A stretch of 63,178 nucleotides of DNA, counting the filler. It is 8 parts of 8 records of this genome, joined end to end, with 100 filler letters (N's around TTAATTAATTAA, not from the genome) between each part and the next. Parts side by side here need not be neighbours in the genome. Positions count along the whole stretch, not along the records: positions 1 to 11,298 come from SRR31147125_75537; 7 more parts are not named here. The stretch is one strand, 5' to 3'. Position 1 is the first letter of the stretch, and every line of letters starts with the position of its first letter. The notes beneath the pieces were generated by a model. It did no database searches. It was not told the origin of the DNA and saw nothing but the letters and a program-made list of their open reading frames with translations. Shown one piece after another: positions 13 through 14,101 of this stretch. Made by a program: the position numbers and the translations under genes.

Positions 13-2139
13 CTACGTGAGGCCGGGCAGCTGGAGCGGGTGATAAATTTTCATCCCGGTTCCCTCTGCAAGCTGGATCGAGCAGACGGAGCTCTCGGTT
101 ACGATCGCGTCGAGCCGGGCTTCCTTGAATAGCTTGAACAGTGGCTCGCCGACTGCGGAGGAGAGCTCATGGCCGAGCAGTCCCGCCTTGAGACCGAAGG
201 TCCCGCCCATGCCGCAACAGGTCCCGGTTTCGATCAGCCGAACATCGGCCCCCCGCCGCTTCAGCCAGGAGAGCGCTCCGTGTCCGGAACCGAGCGGTCG
301 CTGGTGGCAGGCACAGTGATACCCGAGCCGCATGCCGACCAGCTTTTCTGACTCAGGGCTCCGGTCTGCCTCGTTCTCCAGCCTGATCAGGTATTCGAAA
401 AATTCGTAGGAACTGCCCGCCAGCTTGCGTGCGCTGGCGTTGCCGGGCATCAGGGTCGGATACGAGACGGCCAGTGCATAGGCCGCGGTGGGTTCGGTCG
501 CGACGACGTCATAGCCAAGCTCAACCCACGGAGCGAGTTTCTCGACGTTGTAGGCCGCAGCTTTGCGCGCCCCGTCCATGTCGCCGTAGGCGATGCAGGG
601 GTAGCCGCTCACTCCCTGCTCAGGAACAATGACGTTGCAGCCGCTCCTCTCCAGTGCCTCGACCGCAGCGAAACCGAGATCCGGATCATTATGGTTTGCA
701 TACACGTCGACGAAAAAGACAACATTGTTGCCGTTGTTTCCATTCTCAATGGCAGCGGATGCTCTCCGGGCGAATCGCTTCATGAACGTGGTTGATGCAA
801 AGGATGGCAGCGTGCGGCGGGCGGAAAGTCTGATGGTTTTCTCCATCGCCTTACGCACCAGTTTGCTGGACAGCGCCGCGTTGGCGAGCGGCGCTGTGGC
901 TGAACCGAGTTTTGCCGCTTTGTCGGCACCGATCATCACCCGGTTGGCCAGCAGGTGCCCTGCTGATTTCGCGTCCTCGTGCTTGACCCCCGCGATCATG
1001 TGCGGCAGGTTAATCTTGGCCGGACAGATCTCTTTGCAGAGCCCGCAGGATATGCAGAGCTGGGCGAAATCCCCGGCTGTTTCAATACCGTGCACGCCCG
1101 CCGTCCAGCAGATCCCCATGGGGCCGGGATAGATATGGCCGAAGGTATGGCCGCCGACCACCCCGTAGGTCGGACAGGTGTTCATGCAGGCTCCGCAGCG
1201 GATGCAGTAGAGCGCCTCGCGCAGAAACGACTCCCGCATCTCGGTTCTGCCGTTGTCGAGGATGATGATGTGGGTTTCGCGGTCGTTGTCTGCACCGTCA
1301 CCGAGTTCGCATCGTCCGTGCATCCACGTCACGTAGTTGGTGGGGAGCTGCCCCGATGCACTGACCGGGTGAGCCAGGATCATCAGCAGCGCGTCCTCGA
1401 TGGTGTCGACGATTTTCTCCATCCCGATGACGCAGACGTGACAGGTGCCGATGCTCGAGACCAGCCTCCCGTTGCCTTCGTTGGTCTCGATGCAGATGCC
1501 GCCGGTTTCGGCGATCCCGATGTTGGCCCCGGTCAGCCCGATGTCTGATTTAAGGAAAATGGGCCGCAGGTATTTCCGGACGACCTTCATGATGGATGGG
1601 ATATCGTCCGCCACCTGTTCGCCGGTGACATCGGAGAAGATCTTCGCGACATCGGGCGCCATCTTGTGCACGGAGGGAAAGACGAGGTGGAACGGCCGCT
1701 CGTCGACCAGCTGGATGATCAACTCGCCGAGGTCGGTCTCAACGACGTCGATGCCCGCATCGATGAGCGGGTAATTCATCTCGATCTCTTCGGTCGTAAG
1801 CGATTTCGATTTTGCGATGATTTTTGCGGAGTGTTTTTCGGCCAGCCGCAGACAATAGGAGATGACGTCCGTCCCGTCTTTCGCCTCGATGACAGTGGCT
1901 CCGCGTTTGCGGGCATTGTCGATAAAGCGCTGCTTGAGTTCCGGTAATTCCTCGATGCAACGCTCCTTGGCTGCCCTGACGTCGTCCCTGAACGCACTGC
2001 CGCCGGGGAGTGTCTCGAGCGCCTCTTTCCTGGTATCCCGCCCCCGTTTCATGCAGCTGAGCAGCAGATCGCTCTTGGTCTGGTCCGACAACGCTTCTGC
2101 AATGTTCTGTTTCAGCGTTTCGATTCGCGCTTTTGTCAT
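13..2139 (-). CDS. lutB: LutB/LldF-type lactate utilization Fe-S protein (LUD domain plus 2x[4Fe-4S]) fused to a C-terminal GlpC-like CCG domain
   Basis: Motifs KSKS..TEE, ETDLGE, NEGNGR, CIRCGACMNTCP and CISCGLCKEICP are present. The C-terminal region has YHCACH and CCGMGGTFG. Start moved to the ATG at 2139 (MTKARIE) to avoid overlap with lutC. Confidence 0.85.
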   Translation of the reverse strand: MTKARIETLKQNIAEALSDQTKSDLLLSCMKRGRDTRKEALETLPGGSAFRDDVRAAKERCIEELPELKQRFIDNARKRGATVIEAKDGTDVISYCLRLAEKHSAKIIAKSKSLTTEEIEMNYPLIDAGIDVVETDLGELIIQLVDERPFHLVFPSVHKMAPDVAKIFSDVTGEQVADDIPSIMKVVRKYLRPIFLKSDIGLTGANIGIAETGGICIETNEGNGRLVSSIGTCHVCVIGMEKIVDTIEDALLMILAHPVSASGQLPTNYVTWMHGRCELGDGADNDRETHIIILDNGRTEMRESFLREALYCIRCGACMNTCPTYGVVGGHTFGHIYPGPMGICWTAGVHGIETAGDFAQLCISCGLCKEICPAKINLPHMIAGVKHEDAKSAGHLLANRVMIGADKAAKLGSATAPLANAALSSKLVRKAMEKTIRLSARRTLPSFASTTFMKRFARRASAAIENGNNGNNVVFFVDVYANHNDPDLGFAAVEALERSGCNVIVPEQGVSGYPCIAYGDMDGARKAAAYNVEKLAPWVELGYDVVATEPTAAYALAVSYPTLMPGNASARKLAGSSYEFFEYLIRLENEADRSPESEKLVGMRLGYHCACHQRPLGSGHGALSWLKRRGADVRLIETGTCCGMGGTFGLKAGLLGHELSSAVGEPLFKLFKEARLDAIVTESSVCSIQLAEGTGMKIYHPLQLPGLT

Positions 2140-2167
2140 AGCCGTCACCGTGGGTTGATGGGGGGGA

Positions 2168-2728
2168 TCAGCGGTTCTCTTCAGAGATGATGATGGCATG
2201 CGCCTCTTCCGGGCCGTGCACGCCGAGGGTCAGTTTGAGCTCGATATCACCGGTCCGGCTTGGCCCCGAGATAAAGCTGATGACGACATCGTCTCCGGAG
2301 CGGTTGATGATCTCTCGAATCCGTTCGCTTGCATCGAAGTACGCATCAATGATGTCCGACTCCCGCAGGATGCCGAAATGGGTGGCGGGCAGGCTTGACA
2401 CGAGGCGTACCGCATCGTTGTCGGAAACCTCGACCATCGTGCCGGACTGCGCGATCGCGAACTCCATCGACGTAACGCCGATGTCTGCTCTGTCGATAGC
2501 CAGCGGCAGGGAAGCGGCGGGGTATGGCTCTGTCAGTACCTCGATGTCCGGGCCGCAGTTCGATCGGATCAGCTCGACCAGTGAACCGGGGAGTCCGGCG
2601 AGGGCGATGCAGCCGGCCTCCTTGCGGCGGCAGAGATCGGCGATGATACCGGCTGCTTCGGCGTCGCTTGCGACGCGGTGGGATATTCCGTGGAGCTTTT
2701 CGAAATTCTCGCTGAAAGAATAGTTCAT
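2168..2728 (-). CDS. lutC: LutC/YkgG-family LUD-domain protein
   Basis: Motif ISGPSRTGDIELKLTLGVHGP, plus AIAQSGT and SSLPATH. Adjacent to lutB. Confidence 0.9.
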   Translation of the reverse strand: MNYSFSENFEKLHGISHRVASDAEAAGIIADLCRRKEAGCIALAGLPGSLVELIRSNCGPDIEVLTEPYPAASLPLAIDRADIGVTSMEFAIAQSGTMVEVSDNDAVRLVSSLPATHFGILRESDIIDAYFDASERIREIINRSGDDVVISFISGPSRTGDIELKLTLGVHGPEEAHAIIISEENR

Positions 2729-3264: not shown

Positions 3265-4452
3265 ATGAAACGACATAGCTTTCCGTTCAGTGCGATAGTA
3301 GGGCAGGAGAAACTGAAGACGGGCCTGCTGCTCAACGCGGTTGACCCGTCAATCGGCGGTATTCTCGTCAGCGGACACAAGGGAACCGGCAAATCCACGG
3401 CAGTAAGAGCCCTGGCGGGTGTACTCCCGGAAATCGACGTGGTGGCTGGCTGCCCGTACAATTGCGATCCCGCCGACGCGGATACCTTCTGTGTGTCATG
3501 CACTGAGAGATATCATGCTGGTGAGCAGCTTCCTTCGACCACGAGGCCGATGCCGCTGATCGAACTCCCGCTCAGTGCGACGGAGGACCGGGTGATCGGC
3601 ACCCTGCACGTGGAGCAGATCCTGAAAACCGGTGAGCGTACCTTCGAACCCGGCCTTCTGGCGGCAGCGAATCGCGGGATCCTCTACGTGGACGAGGTAA
3701 ACCTGCTCGACGACCACCTGGTCGACATCCTGCTCGATGCCGCCGCGTCGGGAATAAACAACGTGGAACGAGAGGGAATATCCTATACTCACCCGTCCCA
3801 GTTCATGCTGATCGGCACGATGAACCCGGAGGAGGGGGAGCTGCGTCCGCAGTTCCTCGACCGCTTCGGGCTGAGCCTCTCGGTCAACGGGGTTGACAAC
3901 AGCGCGCTGCGATCGATGGTGGTTAACCGGAGAATCTCGTTCGACACCGATTCCGACACCTTTGCCACGGGGTTTCACGAAGACGAATCGCTGCTGACCG
4001 CCCAGGTCCGCACGGCCCGCTCGACACTGCTCGACACGGTTGTTCCCGACGAAATGGTGACGCTGGCCGTGGCTCTTTCCACCGAAGCCCGAGCCCAGGG
4101 GCATCGGGCTGAAATCGGCATCATCAAGGCCGGCCGGGCACTGGCTGCATTTCTTGAGGCCGGCAGGGTGGAGCCCGAGCATATCATCGAGGCCGCCCGC
4201 TTTGTACTCCCGCACCGGATTACAACGCTTTCCTTTGCTACCGGTGAGCAACTCGACGAGGCCCTTGAAGACATCTTCAAGAAGGTCCTCGACGAAGAGT
4301 CGGCTGAGGAACAGGGAGCCTCCGCAGATGAACCGGATGAGTGGGAGGACCTCGACAAGACGGTTCCCGGAGCCAATGCGGCTTCGCATGTCAGTATGCT
4401 CTTCACGTTCATGGCCGAAAAAAAAAAGCGGTCTATGAGCCCGATACGTTGA
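3265..4452 (+). CDS. Mg/Co-chelatase AAA+ subunit (ChlI/BchI-like), the 0-frame product of a chlD-like gene
   Basis: Motifs [19 protein letters not shown] (Walker A), [28 protein letters not shown] and [19 protein letters not shown], followed by an acidic tail. Confidence 0.9.
4417..4428 (+). other. Slippery site GAA AAA AAA AAG (A10-G), candidate -1 programmed frameshift or transcriptional slippage site
   Basis: A run at 4418-4427. The 0-frame stops 8 codons later, while the -1 frame continues into the VWA domain. Confidence 0.6.
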
Positions 4453-5311: not shown

Positions 5312-6601
5312 ATGGAACAGGGACATAAATCATACGGGCCAGCGTGGCTCGCCTGGCTGATGTGGGGGCTCGTCGCCGTACTTTACTGTATCGGTTTCTT
5401 CCAGCGCATGGCCCCGGCCGTCCTGGCCGAAGACCTGATGCGCGACTTCCAGCTCGATGGGGCATTGCTCGGTAATCTATCGGCAGGTTATTTCTATGCA
5501 TATGCGCTCATGCAGATTCCGACCGGTCTGCTGGTCGACCAGATCGGTGCACGGCGGCTCGCATCCATTGCCTGTGCGACCACCGCGGCGGGGATCCTCC
5601 TGTTCAGCTTCGGTTCTTCGTTGTGGTTCGTCTACATTGGCAGATTCGTGGTCGGGGCATCGGTGGCTGTAGCATGGGTCACCTGCATGAAGCTGGCCGG
5701 CCACTGGTTTCCGTCAAACCGCTTTGCGACGGTGACCGGCGTGGCGCTGATCTTCGGCAACGTCGGCGGGATCATGGCCGGCGTGCCGCTGGCTTATGCG
5801 ATGGAGCTGGTGGGCTGGCGAATGGCGATGGGAGCCAGCGGGTTTCTGATGGTGGTGCTGGGGATTGCGACCTGGGCCGTACTCAGGGATGATCCCGGGG
5901 AGTATGGATATCGGAGCCACGCTCATGCGAAGGTGCTCGACGAGGGGAACCTGCCGGCAGGCCGTGCGCTCCTGTCGGTGGTATTGAACCGGAATACCTG
6001 GCTGCTCTTCTTTGCAGGCGGGCTGTCGACGTCGCCGCTGCTCGTGTTCGCCGGACTCTGGGGCGTCCCCTACTTGACCCAGATTTACCAGCTGGAGGTT
6101 GCGACGGCGGCACTGCTGACCTCCTCCATGCTGGTATCGCTGGCGTTGAGCGGCCTGTTCTTCGGTTTCATCTCTGACCGGATCGGTCTGCGGAAGATGC
6201 CGTATCTGATTGGAGCCACCATCACCTCCCTCCTGTGGGCCGTATTCCTGTTCGTGAAGGTTCCGTACCTGATGCTTTTCCCGCTGCTGGCCGGGATCGG
6301 CCTGGCCACGGGGGCGATGATCATCGGGTTCGCGACCGCCCGCGAGGTGAATCACCCGGGCGCGGCCGGTACCGTCGGCGGAGTCGTGAACATGTCGGTG
6401 CTCGGCGTCGCCGCGATCATGCAGCCGGCGGTGGGCAAAATGCTCGATGCCCGCTGGGACGGCGTATTGGTCGACGGTGCCCGGGTCTACAGCGAGGCCG
6501 CCTATCACTCGGCGTTTATCTGGCTGTTCATCAGCACGGTTATTGCGGTTATCATGGTCGCACTGACGCGGGAGACTTACTGCCGCCCGGTCGACAGCTG
6601 A
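5312..6601 (+). CDS. MFS transporter
   Basis: About 12 hydrophobic segments with GLLVDQIGARR and GFISDRIGLRK (motif A). RBS AAGGA upstream. Confidence 0.9.
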   Translation: MEQGHKSYGPAWLAWLMWGLVAVLYCIGFFQRMAPAVLAEDLMRDFQLDGALLGNLSAGYFYAYALMQIPTGLLVDQIGARRLASIACATTAAGILLFSFGSSLWFVYIGRFVVGASVAVAWVTCMKLAGHWFPSNRFATVTGVALIFGNVGGIMAGVPLAYAMELVGWRMAMGASGFLMVVLGIATWAVLRDDPGEYGYRSHAHAKVLDEGNLPAGRALLSVVLNRNTWLLFFAGGLSTSPLLVFAGLWGVPYLTQIYQLEVATAALLTSSMLVSLALSGLFFGFISDRIGLRKMPYLIGATITSLLWAVFLFVKVPYLMLFPLLAGIGLATGAMIIGFATAREVNHPGAAGTVGGVVNMSVLGVAAIMQPAVGKMLDARWDGVLVDGARVYSEAAYHSAFIWLFISTVIAVIMVALTRETYCRPVDS

Positions 6602-6666
6602 GCGAAAAGATCTGCCGGCCTGGCCGCATTGGGAAAATTACTATTAAACAGCGGTATGTACTCTCA

Positions 6667-8034
6667 ATGAATAGAGATTTATTTGAAATCAGAGACTTCT
6701 TACTTCTCTATCCGCCGTTCGATACGTTACCTGTCGAGTCTGTCGATCATGCCGTATCCTCGGTGGAGGTTTCATATTTCAGGGCAGGAAGCGATATACT
6801 GCGGTACGGTGACGAGATCCACCATCTCTTTGTGATCCGGAGTGGCGCTGTGGAGATATACCGCCGCAACGGCACCTTGTTCAATCGGCTTGAGCAGGGT
6901 GGTCTTTTCGGTCAGATGGGCTTGCTGATGAATAATCTGGTGCAGTTGCAGGCCCGGGCCATTGAGGACACCCTCGTCTACCGTTTACCTGAAGCTGTAT
7001 TTCATGATTTTTGTGCCCGATACGAAGAATTTTCAGACTTTGTAGAACTGGAAAACAGCAACCGGCTTCATCAGGTTGTCGCTACTGTCGGTGGAAACGA
7101 TCTGACGACGGCAAAAATTAAGAGTCTGCTTACTCGCGACCCGGTGATCCTGTCCGGACAAACGACGATTCAGCGCGCCGCACAAACCATGGCCGAAGAA
7201 AATGTTTCCGCGGTCCTGGTCGGAGAGAAAAAAGAGTGGTGCGGACAAGGACAAGAGAAAAAACAGATATACGGTATTCTGACGGATAAGGACATCTGTA
7301 ATCGAATTCTTGTTTCCGGCCTCCCTTACGACACACCTGCCGTCGATGTTATGACATCGGAGTTGTTCACACTTGATCATAACGCCTACGTGTATGAAGC
7401 AATGCTGTTGATGTTACGGCACAACATCAAACACCTGCCCATCATGAAAGAGAAATGGCCTGTCGGGGTTGCAGAACTCACCGACATCGTCCGTTATGAA
7501 TCCCAGAACAGTTTATTGCTGGTCAACACGATTTTTCAACAATCGTCTGTAGAAGATCTTGAAATACTGTCACATCAGGTCAAAGACTGTTTCGCCCGTA
7601 TGGTCAATGAAGATGCCAATTCTCATATGGTTGGCAGCGCAATGGCGGTTATCGGGAGAAGCTTTATTCAAAGGCTTACAGAACTGGCCGAGGAATTATT
7701 AGGTCCCCCTCCAGTTCCTTACTGCTTCCTCTCCTTTGGCTCTATGGCCCGGGATGAGCAACTCTTTATTACCGCTCAGGATAACGGCCTGATGCTTGAT
7801 GACTCATATCATCCGGATAATCATGGGCCCTATTTTGAACAGATGGCCACTATCGTCTGCAAAGGGCTGGCCGGATGCGGATATGAGTTGTGTTCCGGAA
7901 ATATAATGGCAACCAACCCGGAATGGAGAAAGACAAGGACGGGGTGGAAAAACTGTTTCGGAGAGTGGATTGATGATCCTCATCCGCAGGCCCTGCTCAA
8001 CAATTCCATTTTTTTCGATTTGGAAGGGGTGTGA
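6667..8034 (+). pseudogene. cNMP-binding + CBS + nucleotidyltransferase-like (DUF294) protein, truncated before most of DUF294_C
   Basis: Motifs IRSGAVE, a CBS pair, GSMARDEQ..TAQDNG and GYELCSGNIMATNPEW. Ends abruptly at FFDLEGV-TGA. Confidence 0.75.
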
Positions 8035-8770
8035 CAACAGCATCTCTCTTCGTGAGGTGGCGCACCTGATGGCGCGTTCCTACCAGGGTCTCAAGATGAT
8101 CACCACCCACAGTATGAGCGACGGTGAGGTGACGTTTTTCCGGGGCCGGCAGCCTGGAAGCTCTGTTAACGCAGACCCATGCGCAGGTATTGTTAATGAT
8201 GGTTATCGCTCAAAGTGTCAATCCCGGGGTTCTGTGCGTACACGGTGGCATCCCCAGTGTGACCGGTGAAGGCGGTACTCTTTCCTACAGCTCACCCCAC
8301 CAGACTTACATCAATGCGGCGATGGCTCGGGTCAACACATGGATTACCGGATTCCCCTCCGCCCAGACCGGCGGGAGCACCAGCCTGTCCGAGGTGACTC
8401 CCCAGGCGATTCTTGAATCAGAGTTGAGCCGAAATTCGTTGCGCACGTATGGGGTCCATATCCTGCGTCATGCGATGGGGGCCCTGGGGGATCTCAATTT
8501 CTTCAGTATGGAAAAATTTGTGGAAGACTGCGAGCGTGAACGTCATTCCATGACGATTTTTGAAACATACCCTGCAACCGGTGGGACGCTCTCTCTGTAC
8601 TTTCCGGCGGATGACCATGCACTCGAGGGGATTCGGGAGGTTGCAGAGAGAGGCAACCCGAAAAATGCTGAGCATACGCTGAAAAATGTCGACTCATTTC
8701 GGCAGTGGGAGAAACGTATACCCGCTGCCGCGGAACAGAAACGTGACAGCCCACAACTCAAAGATACACT
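8030..8770 (+). pseudogene. Fragmented trimethylamine methyltransferase (MttB-family) gene, non-pyrrolysine type
   Basis: The frame containing 8148 reads GSLEALLTQTHAQVLLMMVIAQSVNPG..GGIPSV..GFPSAQTGGST..PQAILE..HILRHAMGAL..SMEKFVEDCE. This matches the C-terminal half of MttB. The N-terminus and a middle part are missing. Confidence 0.6.
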
Positions 8771-9450
8771 TATGGCGGCTTATGGCGATGGAACGGTAAA
8801 CAGGTGCAGGGGGACGGGCAATAATCGTTCATTGTCGTCAGGTCCCGCTCATTGCAGTACCCTTTTGAGATATATCCGTTCTCAAAACCTTTCCGGGTTA
8901 AGACCTGCAGGTGGGTATGATAAAACCAGTTGCCGTTTTCATGGAAGTCACCGATCTCGGCAAAGGGCTGACCGGCGGGTACGGCCGTTCCTTCTTTTGG
9001 CAAAGAGTCGCTTCGAAGATGCCCGTAAAAACTATAAAAAGTGGTGAAGTGCCGGCTGTCATGACGGAGCAGGACAAATCCGCCGTAGTTGCCTTCCCCG
9101 CTTTCATACCCGCACTCCTCGACAACCGCGTCGAGCGGGGCATGGAGCGGGGTTCTCAGGGGGACGATGATGTCGAGTCCCAGATGAATAAAGCGTTTTT
9201 CCTCAACCATCTGGGGGCAGTCTCCCAACAGGGTGTCCCGTCTCTCGAGATATGAAGAGAGTCCCCAGCTGAATCGGTCGTCCATTTCCCTTTCGAGGAT
9301 GTGCTGGAATGTCTTCTGGTCGCGCACGTCCACCCCTTGAAGCAGGGGGCTGGATGGTGACATATCAGCAACCAGCGGGTCTCCTTTGATATCCGGGAAG
9401 ATGGGAGACAGGTTCACCTTGTTGCTATAGATAAGATAGGGGTATTGCAT
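8770..9450 (-). CDS. M23-family metallopeptidase-like protein without a signal peptide
   Basis: Motifs HLGLD (HxxxD), GNYGG, YGHL and HTHLQ (HxH). The last codons are probably shifted by a homopolymer error at 8809-8813; adding one C gives CPSPLHLFTVPSP*. Confidence 0.85.
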   Translation of the reverse strand: MQYPYLIYSNKVNLSPIFPDIKGDPLVADMSPSSPLLQGVDVRDQKTFQHILEREMDDRFSWGLSSYLERRDTLLGDCPQMVEEKRFIHLGLDIIVPLRTPLHAPLDAVVEECGYESGEGNYGGFVLLRHDSRHFTTFYSFYGHLRSDSLPKEGTAVPAGQPFAEIGDFHENGNWFYHTHLQVLTRKGFENGYISKGYCNERDLTTMNDYCPSPCTCLPFHRHKPP

Positions 9451-9462
9451 CGATTATCCTCG

Positions 9463-11298
9463 TCATGAAAGGGGATGCGTCGTGCTCTTCGTGAGCCCTC
9501 GTACCGGCAACACGGGAGAGCCGTCGTCCGCAATCTCAGTGTGACCGGGCCATTCGAATTCAGCTGACATCGCACGAAAATAGTCTCTTTTATATGGGGT
9601 CAGCTTAACCGACAACCCATCTTTTCCTTCCCGGACAGAAGACGTAAGCCCGAAATCCACGTCACCGAGCGGGGTGCTGACAATGTAGCGGGGAATCTCT
9701 CGCCCGCTTCCTTCCCTGCGAACTTTTGTCGCGATATCTATCACATCGTAGAGGTCGACCGGGTTGTCGCTGTTCCAGTGTTCCTGAATCGTCAGCCCTG
9801 CTACATAGAGATGGTGAAATTCGATCGCCGCTTCACGGCACCGGTAGGCGAGCTGATGAATAATTGTCGCCGTGTCGTTTATGTTGCCCAGGAGCGGTGT
9901 GTTGTTGTAGACGGTGATGCCCCGGTCTCGAAGTTTACGGGTCAGTTGTACGTGGCGTTCCGTGATCTCTTCCGGCGCAATAAACCATGCCTCAATTTCA
10001 ACTCGCAGGGGATTGACCACGGTCAGGCTGTTGATGTCGGCGAGGAGGTCGATCGCCTGTTGCGTGTAGCGTTGCGGATTGTCCCGGAACGCCCGGCTGC
10101 GCAGACGCATGCTGTTTACATGCGGAATGCGTTTCAATTGTGCCGCTAACTCACGGACTGTGTGCAGGTCGTGGACGATATCCTGGTTTGAAACGACCAC
10201 GACGTCCGTTATGCGGTCGTCTGATTCGATATACCCGAGCGCCGCATTGTCAATGCCGGCATCAACTTCAACACGGGTCTCGTGTACACGGGAAACCAAG
10301 GTATGACCTGTCGGTACGATTGACGGTGACAGGCATTGATTCTCCTGTAAACGTTCATACAGGGAGGAGGGGATTTTGGTTGTTTCCAGCTCTTTCTGCG
10401 GTTTTGCAGGACGTGAACCGAAAAAGAGGGAAGGGTCACCGATTTTTGCCATGTACTGAATATCGATCGTTCCTTCCTGGTTGATTCGTATGTTTTGCAA
10501 TTCGTTTGCAAGTGGTGCGAAATTTTTGAAGTATTCCGGGGTGTATGGACTCCTTATCCAGATGAAATTGTCATTTCCCGCGACTGGTTCAACCGCCCAT
10601 CCGCTTGTGTTCCAGTCCATTTTACCAATCGGTGTTGCTGTGCAGATTCTCGGGATGACCCGGTCGGAAAGGTGGGCCCGGAGGTATTGGGCGGCATCAT
10701 GACCTTTCGAGATTGGTGACCAGTAGATGCTGTTGCCGTGAATCGGGCTGCAGGGGATGTAAATATAGTGCAACTCGGCACCGGCCCCCCGGAGCAGGCT
10801 GAACAACCGTACCAGTTCCGGTCCCTTGTCATTGCAGCCATCGAGAAATGGAGTCTGGATATAGACACATATGCCGTTTTTAACGAGGTCTGTAATTATC
10901 TGCAGGCACTGCGGAGAAATCTCGTCCGGATGGATGAAATGCGTTGCCAGCTCTATGCGCTTTCCCTTTTCCTGCAGCTCAATGTTTTTACGCTTCAGGT
11001 AACGCAGGTATTGTTCGTCGTTGGCCAGGAACAGGTCAGGAAAATAGGCGACGGACCGGGTGGCGAGGCGCAGGGTCTGCACGTGCTCGACCTCCATCAG
11101 ATTATCGATGGTGGCAGCCATGTTTACCCTGCTCATGAATGGGTCGCCGCCCGTCACCACGATCTCCTTGATCTCGGGGGAATTACGGACATGTTCGACA
11201 GCCTTGAGGACATCCTCGGGCGCAGGGTTCGCCTCATTGCGGGATTCTTTGTGTTTACGAAAACAGAACCGGCAATAGACCGGGCAGCTCATGTTGAG
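9463..11298 (-). CDS. KamA-family (lysine 2,3-aminomutase-like) radical SAM protein with a second, degenerate KamA-like copy; 5' end cut by the contig end
   Basis: First half has CPVYCRFCFRK, VVTGGDP, THFIHPDEI, QTPFLDGCND and TPIGK. Second half has parallel motifs ITDVVVV, MRLRSR, FIAPEEIT, NNTPLLGNIND and SGREIPRY. Confidence 0.85.
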   Translation of the reverse strand, partial: LNMSCPVYCRFCFRKHKESRNEANPAPEDVLKAVEHVRNSPEIKEIVVTGGDPFMSRVNMAATIDNLMEVEHVQTLRLATRSVAYFPDLFLANDEQYLRYLKRKNIELQEKGKRIELATHFIHPDEISPQCLQIITDLVKNGICVYIQTPFLDGCNDKGPELVRLFSLLRGAGAELHYIYIPCSPIHGNSIYWSPISKGHDAAQYLRAHLSDRVIPRICTATPIGKMDWNTSGWAVEPVAGNDNFIWIRSPYTPEYFKNFAPLANELQNIRINQEGTIDIQYMAKIGDPSLFFGSRPAKPQKELETTKIPSSLYERLQENQCLSPSIVPTGHTLVSRVHETRVEVDAGIDNAALGYIESDDRITDVVVVSNQDIVHDLHTVRELAAQLKRIPHVNSMRLRSRAFRDNPQRYTQQAIDLLADINSLTVVNPLRVEIEAWFIAPEEITERHVQLTRKLRDRGITVYNNTPLLGNINDTATIIHQLAYRCREAAIEFHHLYVAGLTIQEHWNSDNPVDLYDVIDIATKVRREGSGREIPRYIVSTPLGDVDFGLTSSVREGKDGLSVKLTPYKRDYFRAMSAEFEWPGHTEIADDGSPVLPVRGLTKSTTHPLS

Positions 11299-11398
11299 NN
11301 NNNNNNNNNNNNNNNNNNNNNNNNNNNNNNNNNNNNNNNNNNTTAATTAATTAANNNNNNNNNNNNNNNNNNNNNNNNNNNNNNNNNNNNNNNNNNNN
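11299..11398. other. Artificial contig spacer (N44-TTAATTAATTAA-N44); also at 17034-17133, 31157-31256, 38050-38149, 45443-45542, 50659-50758 and 57849-57948
   Basis: Identical 100-nt linkers with stops in all six frames. Genes are cut at every junction. Confidence 0.98.
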
Positions 11399-11641: not shown

Positions 11642-14101
11642 TTAGGTTGTCTGTTGACTAATGCGGAACTGAGCAATCTGCTGGGTAAGGCTCATCGACA
11701 GTTGCCTCAATTCATCGGTAATTCCCACGACCTCGCTTGCCCCGGCCACTGTTTCGGTTGCACGGCCTGCCGAAGCTGTCGCAATTTCGACCAGGCTTTT
11801 GGATCGTTGGGCCTGAAGGTCGGTTAGCTTTCTCATCTCCTCGCTTCGTTCAACCACGCCACGCATTTCGATTCCAACGTCCTCGGCACTCTTTTCAGCC
11901 TTCTGCACCAAGTCGGAAATGTTGTTTGATTTACTGATTAGCGTTTCGAGGGCGACTTGAGCGGCCTCGCGGCGTTTACCCTGCCGACCGGCCATGCCTC
12001 CGATTTCCTCGGCAAGCGTGTTGAGGCCTTCTATCAGTGATGTCACCTCACGCGTCTGCTGGTTCAGGTTCTGACTCATCCTTGATATGTTGTCGATCGC
12101 CTCGCGGTTAACCTCGCCTCCCTGGGCGATTTTTTCCAGCGCCTTTTCAGACCGCTCCGTCAAACGGGTTCCTTCCTGAACACGATTGGTCGATTCTTTG
12201 ATCAGGTGGCCGATCTCCTTGGCTGCTTCAGATGATCGCTGGGCCAGCTTTCCGACTTCGTCGGCAACCACCGCAAAACCTTTTCCATGCACACCGGCTC
12301 GGGCAGCCTCGATGGCGGCGTTTAGGGCCAGCAAGTTGGTTTGTTCAGCAATATCGGTAATAACCGAAATAATATCGGTAATTTTTTCCGATGACTCGGC
12401 AATTGCCTGCATACCCGAAACAGTCTCCTTAACCGACTGGGCGCCCTCCTGGGCAGCGGCCAACACGCCTTGCCCATGTTCGGTGGCCCGGTTGGCTGCC
12501 TGGGTCATATCCGACACAATGGAATCGATTTGCTTGACGGCACCGGTTACCTTGGTGACCTGATCGCCCTGTTTACCGGCGGTAGACACAACCATGGCAC
12601 CGGTTTCACCCATTACGGTCACACGTTCACTGGCGATATCGGCTTCTTTAATCTGTTCGGTGGAGGCCTGCCCCATCTGGCGCATGCTCTCGATGAGATT
12701 CTCCACCCTCCGGTAAGAAAGGTTAGCCGCGTCTCGCTGAGAGTGAGAGAACTGAGCGACTTCACCGGCGGTGTCACCCATCTGGTTCACCGTATCCTGG
12801 ATAATCCCCATCTGACGTTCTTCCTCGGTGGCGCGCTCCTTGTTGGCGGTGGCACGTTTGGACACCTCTGTTGAGAAGTCATCGACACCCGAGGCGGCAA
12901 CGTTGGCGACTTTCATCGACTCGCGCATTTCACCGATCATGTTATTGAACTCTTTGGCCATCGCTCCGACCTCGTCACCGGTTTTGACCGGCACTTCAAG
13001 GGTCAGATCTCGGTCTGAGGCGACTTTGTTTACTACGCTTGCAATCTCGACAACCGGCCGTGAAATACCATTTGAGATCAAGAACACGACCCCCAGCAAC
13101 AGAAGCACGGCGATGTTTCCCACAACAAGGGTTCTGATAAAAAGCTGTTGCGGCGCCCTCAACACCTCATCCATTGGGAAATTGACGCCCAGGCTCCACT
13201 TATTTTTAGCACTACCGATGGATACCGGCGCAAAAACATAATAGGTTTTTTTATTCGTTACCTTGGAAACAGAGAATTGGCTGGCTTCCTTTCCATTTTT
13301 CACTTTTGCGATGAATTCGGGAGAAAAACCGAATTTATCCATCGGCTCACCGAGCACGGCTCGCGTCGTGGGGTGTGCGACTGGAGATCCATCACTTGAA
13401 ACGAGGAACCCGTAACCTGAGTCGTAGAGGTGGATGTCTTTCACGATGGGCTCGAAGGAGAGCACGGGAATCTCTATCCCGACAACGGCCACGACCGTTC
13501 CGGAAAACCTCACTGGAACGGTAAGGACGGCGGTGCCCTTGGTGCGGTCTTCTATGGAAAAATCAGGGTTAAAAATGGCTTCCTGGCCAGACTTGAGCGT
13601 TTCCAGATAGTAGTTCCTTTTTCCTTCAGCTGTATACCCCCCATAGGGTTCGATATCGATCTCGCCATCTACACGGTTCCAGTAAGGGGCGTAACGCCCA
13701 GTCTCATCGTGCCCGAATGCGTCAATGAAATCACTGTCTTTACCGTCCAGGGCATTGGGTTCCCAACAGGTCCACACCGCCAGAAAATCGGGATTGTCAA
13801 TCAGAACCTGTTTAAGGATACCATCCATCATGTCCCGGGGCGGAACACCTTGTTGTTTCATTCCCTCAAAGGATTGTCTAAGTGTCCGGGCTGTATCCAT
13901 GGCGCTGCCAAGTTTCTCCTGAACGCGACTGGCGTAACGATAGGCCGACTCACGCGCCTTGTCCAACGCCTCCTGTTCGGCAAGTTGCCTGGAGTTGAAA
14001 CCGATGTAATAAATCGTCAACGTGAAGGCGATCCAAGCCACTGAACAGATGGAAAGCAGCATCTTGGTTCTCAGTTTAAGGTTTTTGAATTTTTGAAACA
14101 T
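11642..14101 (-). CDS. Methyl-accepting chemotaxis protein (TM-dCache-TM-HAMP-long signalling domain)
   Basis: Hairpin tip [46 protein letters not shown] and Cache-type [22 protein letters not shown]. Confidence 0.95.

Follow-up and report, generated by a model that had tools for sequence, protein, structure and literature searches.

To our knowledge, all characterised KamA-type aminomutases are single-barrel chains that act as homo-oligomers. What, then, is the role of a gene in which a complete KamA-type core is fused to a second copy without its cofactor sites? Such a gene, called the tandem gene here, lies in a stretch of DNA of 63,178 nucleotides (the window, positions 1-63178) made of eight contigs joined by N44-TTAATTAATTAA-N44 linkers. 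An earlier note on this DNA had described its product as a KamA-family radical S-adenosylmethionine (SAM) protein carrying its own catalytically dead duplicate. The best overall explanation, towards which we lean by a little, is a two-barrel KamA-like aminomutase that has one active site per chain and belongs to an acetylated-lysine osmolyte locus. A conserved chain that pairs a live barrel with a dead one offers a natural experiment on the part that a partner subunit plays in a radical enzyme.

A live and a dead barrel in one chain

The fusion described in the earlier note is real and conserved. When the first half of the fragment encoded in the window was compared with its second half, BLASTP gave an E value of 7e-21 and 26% identity over 260 residues, an internal repeat far beyond chance, and both halves matched KamA models. 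The second half alone matched TIGR00238 (E 1.9e-17) and the glutamate 2,3-aminomutase model (E 9e-20). A structural model of the window's own copy 2 (predicted local distance difference test score, pLDDT, 91.9) had lysine 2,3-aminomutase (LAM) of Clostridium subterminale (PDB 2A5H; AblA) as its first PDB match in Foldseek (E 9e-14; next entry 7.8e-5), and VIA-align superposed the two with a Z score of 19.4 and a root-mean-square deviation of 3.5 Å over 240 residues (next fold, Z 10.8). The model of a full-length relative (pLDDT 85.2; predicted template modelling score 0.89) also had 2A5H as its top PDB match (E 2e-16), and the LAM fold was the best match of both barrels. The note had held that its reading would fall if the second half did not fold as a KamA-type barrel, and had called for hidden Markov model searches and structure prediction of that half; the KamA model matches and the predicted LAM fold both came out in its favour. 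It had also called for a survey of homologues. ORFs were clustered across 117 loci, 100 of which carry a tandem gene for a protein of at least 700 residues, and each of these 100 proteins has exactly one CxxxCxxC motif.

Copy 1 has the three motifs that the note had listed, CPVYCRFC, GGDP and TPIGK, all of which were found in the translation of the window. In an alignment of 35 sequences of the family, C213, C217, C220, R222, G258-G259-D260-P261, T327-H328, N364-D365 and K434 were invariant. The phmmer alignment to chain 2a5h_A put C213, C217, C220 and R222 on C125, C129, C132 and R134 of LAM, and we take R134 to be the carboxylate-binding arginine and K337 to be the PLP (pyridoxal 5'-phosphate) lysine. 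A MAFFT alignment with five genuine LAMs from neighbouring genes placed K434 on the lysine of GGGGK, which bears out the equivalence that the note had proposed for the TPIGK lysine. Copy 1 scored 38.7 bits against the Pfam radical SAM model PF04055 (gathering cut-off 29.5) and together with CPVYCRFC this places it in the radical SAM superfamily; copy 2 had no PF04055 match and no cysteine triad. Copy 1 combines the KamA fold with a PLP lysine after the last strand, a GGD/E motif and an arginine after the third cysteine, while copy 2 has the fold only. LAM and copy 1 have in common the CxxxCxxC motif, GGD, the arginine two residues past the third cysteine, THFxHPxE, ND and the PLP lysine. Judged by its sequence, copy 1 has all that a radical-SAM/PLP 2,3-aminomutase core needs, namely CxxxCxxC, GGDP, the arginine at the R134 column and the lysine at the PLP column.

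The second copy had been described as a motif-by-motif counterpart of the first, and RVHETRVEV, ITDVVVVS, MRLRSR, FIAPEEIT, NNTPLLGNIND and SGREIPRYIVSTPLGD were all present in the translation. The losses that had been claimed for it were also seen. In copy 2 the three cysteine columns hold Val/His/Val-type residues and S-x-x-D stands where GGDP is expected, and by alignment with the genuine LAMs the lysine column is occupied by Asp or Glu (in 100 proteins, Glu 78 and Asp 9; the other 13 were unmatched by the pattern used). Since it is without the three cysteines and GGDP and carries an acidic residue at the lysine column, copy 2 is predicted to be unable to hold the cluster or to form the PLP aldimine.

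Copy 2 is nevertheless well kept. Its mean pairwise identity was 63%, between the values for copy 1 (81%) and the linker (35%), and 43 of its 230 columns were invariant in the 35 sequences, showing that selection continues to act on it. Each tandem chain would have one active site, and copy 2 would be a built-in form of the partner subunit that a second chain supplies in homo-oligomeric LAM. We see an even chance that copy 2 replaces the partner subunit of the ancestral homo-oligomer. Another role, compatible with this one, is a ligand-binding module (allosteric or substrate-handing) for an amino acid or a nucleotide that does no chemistry. The invariant residues of copy 2 include R545 (at the R134 column of LAM), H547, R550, N682-D683, H703-H704 and S739-G740-R741-E742, and they are kept in distant forms, which would fit a binding pocket; conserved interior residues may serve folding or the interface instead, and we consider the ligand-binding role unlikely.

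Age and distribution of the family

When copy 2 alone was searched against 1.84 billion cluster representatives, 361 proteins matched at E <=1e-3 and 40 at E <=1e-30, and two-barrel forms of 808-850 residues reached down to 27% identity. No clear case of a split or stand-alone copy 2 was seen among the matches of 283-425 residues read from this search; these look like fragments, since most of them begin inside copy 1 or the linker. A quick maximum-likelihood tree gathered the copy 1 sequences in one clade and the copy 2 sequences in another (Shimodaira-Hasegawa-like approximate likelihood ratio test support 99 and 100) and joined the two at 89. The nearest outgroup to both copies was the single-barrel protein P0169 (support weak, 65). 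This tree fits one ancient internal duplication that preceded the diversification of the family, with copy 2 dating back as far as the family itself. P0169 (388 residues) resembles the tandem proteins in having CP.YCRFCFRK, a beta-rich tail in place of LAM_C and IGK at the PLP lysine, but it has a single barrel and G/T at the two specificity columns discussed below.

A copy-2 profile found the tandem gene in two of 301 sampled genomes of the phylum and in two of 201 genomes of the order of Desulfopila sp. IMCC35008. Pattern scans located the gene in 37 species-genome loci and in more than 529 metagenome stretches. The family is conserved but patchily distributed among sulfate reducers. Full-text literature searches returned no description of a two-barrel KamA protein, and the annotations in the source records read only 'radical SAM protein' or 'lysine 2,3-aminomutase'. 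In one metagenome-assembled genome (L026 8206-10462) two ORFs, of 458 and 296 residues, take the place of an unbroken tandem gene, possibly through a frameshift or an assembly error.

Specificity columns and substrate

In the phmmer alignment, residues 293 and 330 of chain 2a5h_A, both Asp, align with S392 and A429 of the tandem protein. The two aspartates of LAM presumably hold the epsilon-ammonium group of lysine. Each of the five genuine LAMs whose genes adjoin a tandem gene is D/D at these columns, and the tandem proteins have Ser at the D293 column in 98 of 100 cases and Ala at the D330 column in 97 of 100. Among 53 single-barrel representatives, 26 are D/D, two D/E and three K/N; the rest have mixed pairs, often hydrophobic. 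For all three K/N proteins the best model was glutamate 2,3-aminomutase, and one of them scored above its cut-off. The two columns therefore track substrate specificity, and Ser/Ala is a fixed signature of the tandem family that would suit a side chain lacking a free ammonium group at its end.

Because the D293 and D330 columns are Ser/Ala in the tandem family and D/D in genuine LAMs, free lysine is an unlikely substrate of the tandem enzyme. The earlier note had also suspected a substrate other than free lysine. That part probably stands, on the strength of the Ser/Ala pair; the existence of the dead half, from which the note had argued, is not the basis for it.

The AblA/KamA equivalog TIGR03820 has a cut-off of 525.4 bits, and the fragment scored 150.8 and full-length relatives 150.3-163.5; the aspartates of AblA/KamA at the two columns are replaced by Ser and Ala. 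The zinc-cysteine domain LAM_C (PF12544) was not matched in the fragment or in its full-length relative P0002, whereas the LAM next to the tandem gene in locus L027 carries it. Compared with LAM, the tandem chain also has two barrels, one of them cofactor-less, and an extra N-terminal domain of about 140 residues, and it does not keep C268. The KamA family also includes glutamate 2,3-aminomutase, whose residues at these two columns are changed to accommodate another side chain. That enzyme is single-barrel and K/N where the tandem protein is S/A, and the tandem protein scored 151 bits against its model TIGR04368 (cut-off 650).

Association with AblB

N-epsilon-acetyl-beta-lysine (NABL) is a common osmolyte of anaerobic, saline habitats. 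Its published route, as outlined in passages of PMC3543383 and PMC11337218, consists of AblA/KamA and AblB. One cluster of neighbouring genes, represented in 13 of the 117 tandem loci, was AblB (TIGR03827, the beta-lysine N-epsilon-acetyltransferase model), and all six members tested scored 291-335 bits against the cut-off of 205.1. In seven loci ablB is directly upstream of the tandem gene on the same strand, with no ablA between them. In three others (G001, G494 and G497) ablB is just outside the 8-kb flank, and in G001 and G497, for which ORFs were listed, it ends a divergent operon, 48 and 8 nt past the amidohydrolase gene. AblB scored above the cut-off in eight of nine genomes that carry the tandem gene and in 30 of 201 genomes of the order sample (Fisher p 3e-6; the genomes are related and come from two orders). 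AblA was above its cut-off in only one of four carrier genomes. No published NABL breakdown pathway and no published AblA-independent route was found. The Ser/Ala signature together with the AblB link gives a concrete substrate proposal in NABL metabolism.

Two KamA-family matches just under the AblA cut-off (G002:C1:4406117-4407193 and G395:C22:325768-326847) have one in-frame TGA each and could be selenoproteins or broken genes.

Neighbouring genes

The most constant neighbour of the tandem gene encodes an M23-like putative metallohydrolase. It is the next gene downstream in 45 of the 82 loci with room for it, on the same strand in 41 (usually 8-23 nt away) and convergent in four. In the window its 226-residue product scored 38.6 bits against PF01551 (gathering cut-off 28.7), placing it in the peptidase M23 family. 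HxxxD and HxH are conserved; H89, D93, H144, H178 and H180 were invariant in 20 sequences and align with 9gy1_A. The protein has no evident signal peptide and looks cytoplasmic. It also matches the central part of PRK06148-type fusions of about 1010 residues, which consist of a kinase, an M23-like part and a class III aminotransferase: it aligned with positions 402-571 of NF004799 and with P0272 at 33% identity over 89% of the query. The M23-like module accompanies a PLP enzyme in both settings, but it is free-standing beside a radical-SAM/PLP enzyme here and fused in the PRK06148-type proteins. This partner, found also inside large kinase-aminotransferase fusions, is a second unexplained module. 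A complex prediction of tandem residues 141-819 with the M23-like protein scored 0.00, a result with no bearing on binding. The kinase part of the matched fusions (NF004799; P0272) is of the APH type.

A divergent IclR gene precedes the tandem gene in 38 of 79 loci. Among the 37 loci with 6 kb on both sides, an ATP-binding cassette (ABC) ATPase was found in 27, each permease in 25, a PotD-like binding protein in 23, an Amidohydro_3 hydrolase in 25 and a proline-racemase homologue with both catalytic cysteines in 20. A binding protein of the polar-amino-acid type substitutes in some loci, and aminotransferases of the gamma-aminobutyric acid (GABA) type and other types are near the tandem gene in some. 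Directly upstream in five loci are genes for a genuine LAM and for a HemL-like aminotransferase. Downstream of the tandem gene, one clade has a non-pyrrolysine MttB-family methyltransferase homologue and another proline-racemase homologue (L027 11664-13085, + strand).

Proposed function and alternatives

It seems an evenly balanced question whether the pathway of the tandem gene concerns NABL. The substrate of the enzyme would be an amino acid that does not end in a free ammonium and whose amino group is shifted between C2 and C3, and Ser/Ala would make room for a neutral acetamido tail. The locus would serve osmolyte uptake and turnover, with the IclR regulator, ABC importer, proline-racemase homologue, Amidohydro_3 hydrolase, AblB and M23-like hydrolase as its parts. 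As an exact reaction, our best candidate is a 2,3-amino shift between N-epsilon-acetyl-L-lysine and NABL, a tentative proposal with a chance well below even. It might run towards synthesis independently of AblA, with AblB acetylating first, or imported NABL might be turned into acetyl-lysine and then into lysine by the amidohydrolase or the M23-like enzyme. The narrower idea that the family is an aminomutase specific for N-epsilon-acetylated lysine, with the cofactor-less twin barrel as a ligand-sensing partner, is likewise doubtful.

Several observations weigh against the acetylated-lysine reading. The residue roles assumed above for D293, D330, R134 and K337 of LAM are background from structural work, and chain 2a5h_A itself gave only their identity and numbering. 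The cut-off of the KamA subfamily model TIGR00238 is 199.2 bits, and the fragment scored 159.5 and the full-length proteins P0002 and P0012 159.0 and 161.0; the tandem proteins are best placed as a divergent branch that is related to the curated KamA subfamily but outside it. ablB lies within the flanks of only those 13 of 117 loci, carrier genome G498 has no AblB, and in G002 and G208 ablB is far from the tandem gene. In the window the gene is incomplete and the upstream operon is absent. The proposed reaction also does not explain why an acetyltransferase and a putative deacetylase are in one operon, or why a Cys/Cys proline-racemase homologue is present.

Could the tandem enzyme be a true lysine 2,3-aminomutase after all, standing in for AblA and feeding beta-lysine to AblB, with the epsilon-ammonium held in some other way and the dead half as a scaffold? 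The seven loci with ablB directly upstream and no ablA between, the scarcity of AblA in the carrier genomes and the name that sources often give the protein would all agree with this. However, both Asp columns are Ser/Ala here, though they are kept by the five neighbouring LAMs and by 26 of the 53 representatives, and scores of 150-164 bits are far from the AblA cut-off of 525.4. Moreover, such an enzyme would be redundant in the five loci that have an adjoining genuine LAM, and G001 and G002 have other KamA-like genes just under the AblA cut-off. We therefore regard it as improbable. The aminomutase might also act on some other imported nitrogen compound unrelated to NABL, such as a neutral or a proline- or ornithine-derived amino acid set free by the amidohydrolase or the M23-like hydrolase, and the locus would then be wholly catabolic. 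The commonest neighbours (IclR, a PotD-like or polar-amino-acid ABC importer, Amidohydro_3 and the Cys/Cys proline-racemase homologue) and the aminotransferases near some loci would suit such a pathway, and the hydrophobic residues that many KamA relatives have at the two specificity columns suggest that many specificities exist. This alternative leaves the enrichment and adjacency of AblB unexplained, and we think it rather unlikely.

Extent of the gene and other features of the window

The tandem ORF has its stop codon at 9463-9465 and its reading frame is unbroken to the contig edge at 11298 (Table 1). The earlier note had missed that the ORF at 9463-11298 is cut at the contig end, where the linker begins at 11299. 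Many proteins of 819-820 residues cover 100% of the 611-residue fragment, the best being P0002 with 93% identity. Since no stop interrupts the frame before the contig edge and these relatives cover the fragment completely, about 208 N-terminal residues are missing, and the fragment begins at residue 209 of about 819. The ATG at 11292 is internal and is not the start codon. The lost part comprises the N-terminal domain of about 140 residues, which the note had overlooked, and the helical segment by which the cluster motif is preceded in KamA enzymes.

Could the gene, in this genome, be a pseudogene or a product of faulty assembly? Its truncation at 11298 would favour this, as would the widely differing G+C contents of the contigs that make up the window. 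However, 611 uninterrupted codons are 93% identical to a full-length protein across 100% of their length, the partner M23-like gene is intact downstream and the truncation falls exactly on the contig end. The pseudogene reading was rejected on these grounds, and either explanation is very improbable.

Table 1. Positions of the tandem gene, its parts and adjoining features in the window
Feature	Position	Strand	Remarks
M23-like putative metallohydrolase gene	8770..9450	-	12 nt downstream of tandem gene; most constant family neighbour
Tandem KamA-like gene, last 611 codons and stop of ~819 codons	9463..11298	-	5' end lost at contig edge
Beta-rich tail of copy 2	9466..9627	-	
Copy 2, degenerate KamA-type barrel	9628..10317	-	without cluster cysteines and GGDP; Asp at PLP-lysine column
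Asp codon of STPLGD	9661..9663	-	PLP-lysine column; Glu in most relatives
Inter-copy linker	10318..10422	-	poorly conserved, mean identity 35%
Beta-rich tail of copy 1	10423..10581	-	in place of LAM_C zinc domain
Copy 1, putative live radical-SAM/PLP barrel	10582..11298	-	fragment residues 1-239 = 209-447 of P0002
Lys codon of TPIGK (K434 full-length)	10621..10623	-	aligned with PLP lysine K337 of LAM
GGDP, SAM-binding GGD/E-type motif	11140..11151	-	invariant in 35 sequences
CPVYCRFC, [4Fe-4S] motif	11263..11286	-	sole CxxxCxxC of protein
Artificial inter-contig linker (N44 + TTAATTAATTAA + N44)	11299..11398	.	

The N runs of the window begin at 11299, 17034, 31157, 38050, 45443, 50659 and 57849. 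The G+C content per 2-kb block ranges from 0.36 to 0.61, and given this spread the pieces may come from more than one organism. When the neighbour genes of the relatives and AblB were searched against the window with tblastn, only the tandem fragment and the M23-like gene matched. On the same contig, a protein with cNMP-binding (cyclic nucleotide monophosphate), CBS and DUF294 nucleotidyltransferase parts is encoded at 6235-8034 (+), convergent with the M23-like gene; its listed ORF start is probably too early. Further ORFs at 13-2728 (-), 3265-4452 (+) and 5312-6601 (+) encode LUD-domain/4Fe-4S/CCG (LutB/LutC-like) proteins, a Mg-chelatase-like AAA protein and a major facilitator superfamily transporter, and they have no relation to the tandem gene. 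The next contig has an ORF of 819 residues at 11642-14101 (-) that by eye resembles a methyl-accepting chemotaxis protein, and its match in length with the tandem family is a coincidence.

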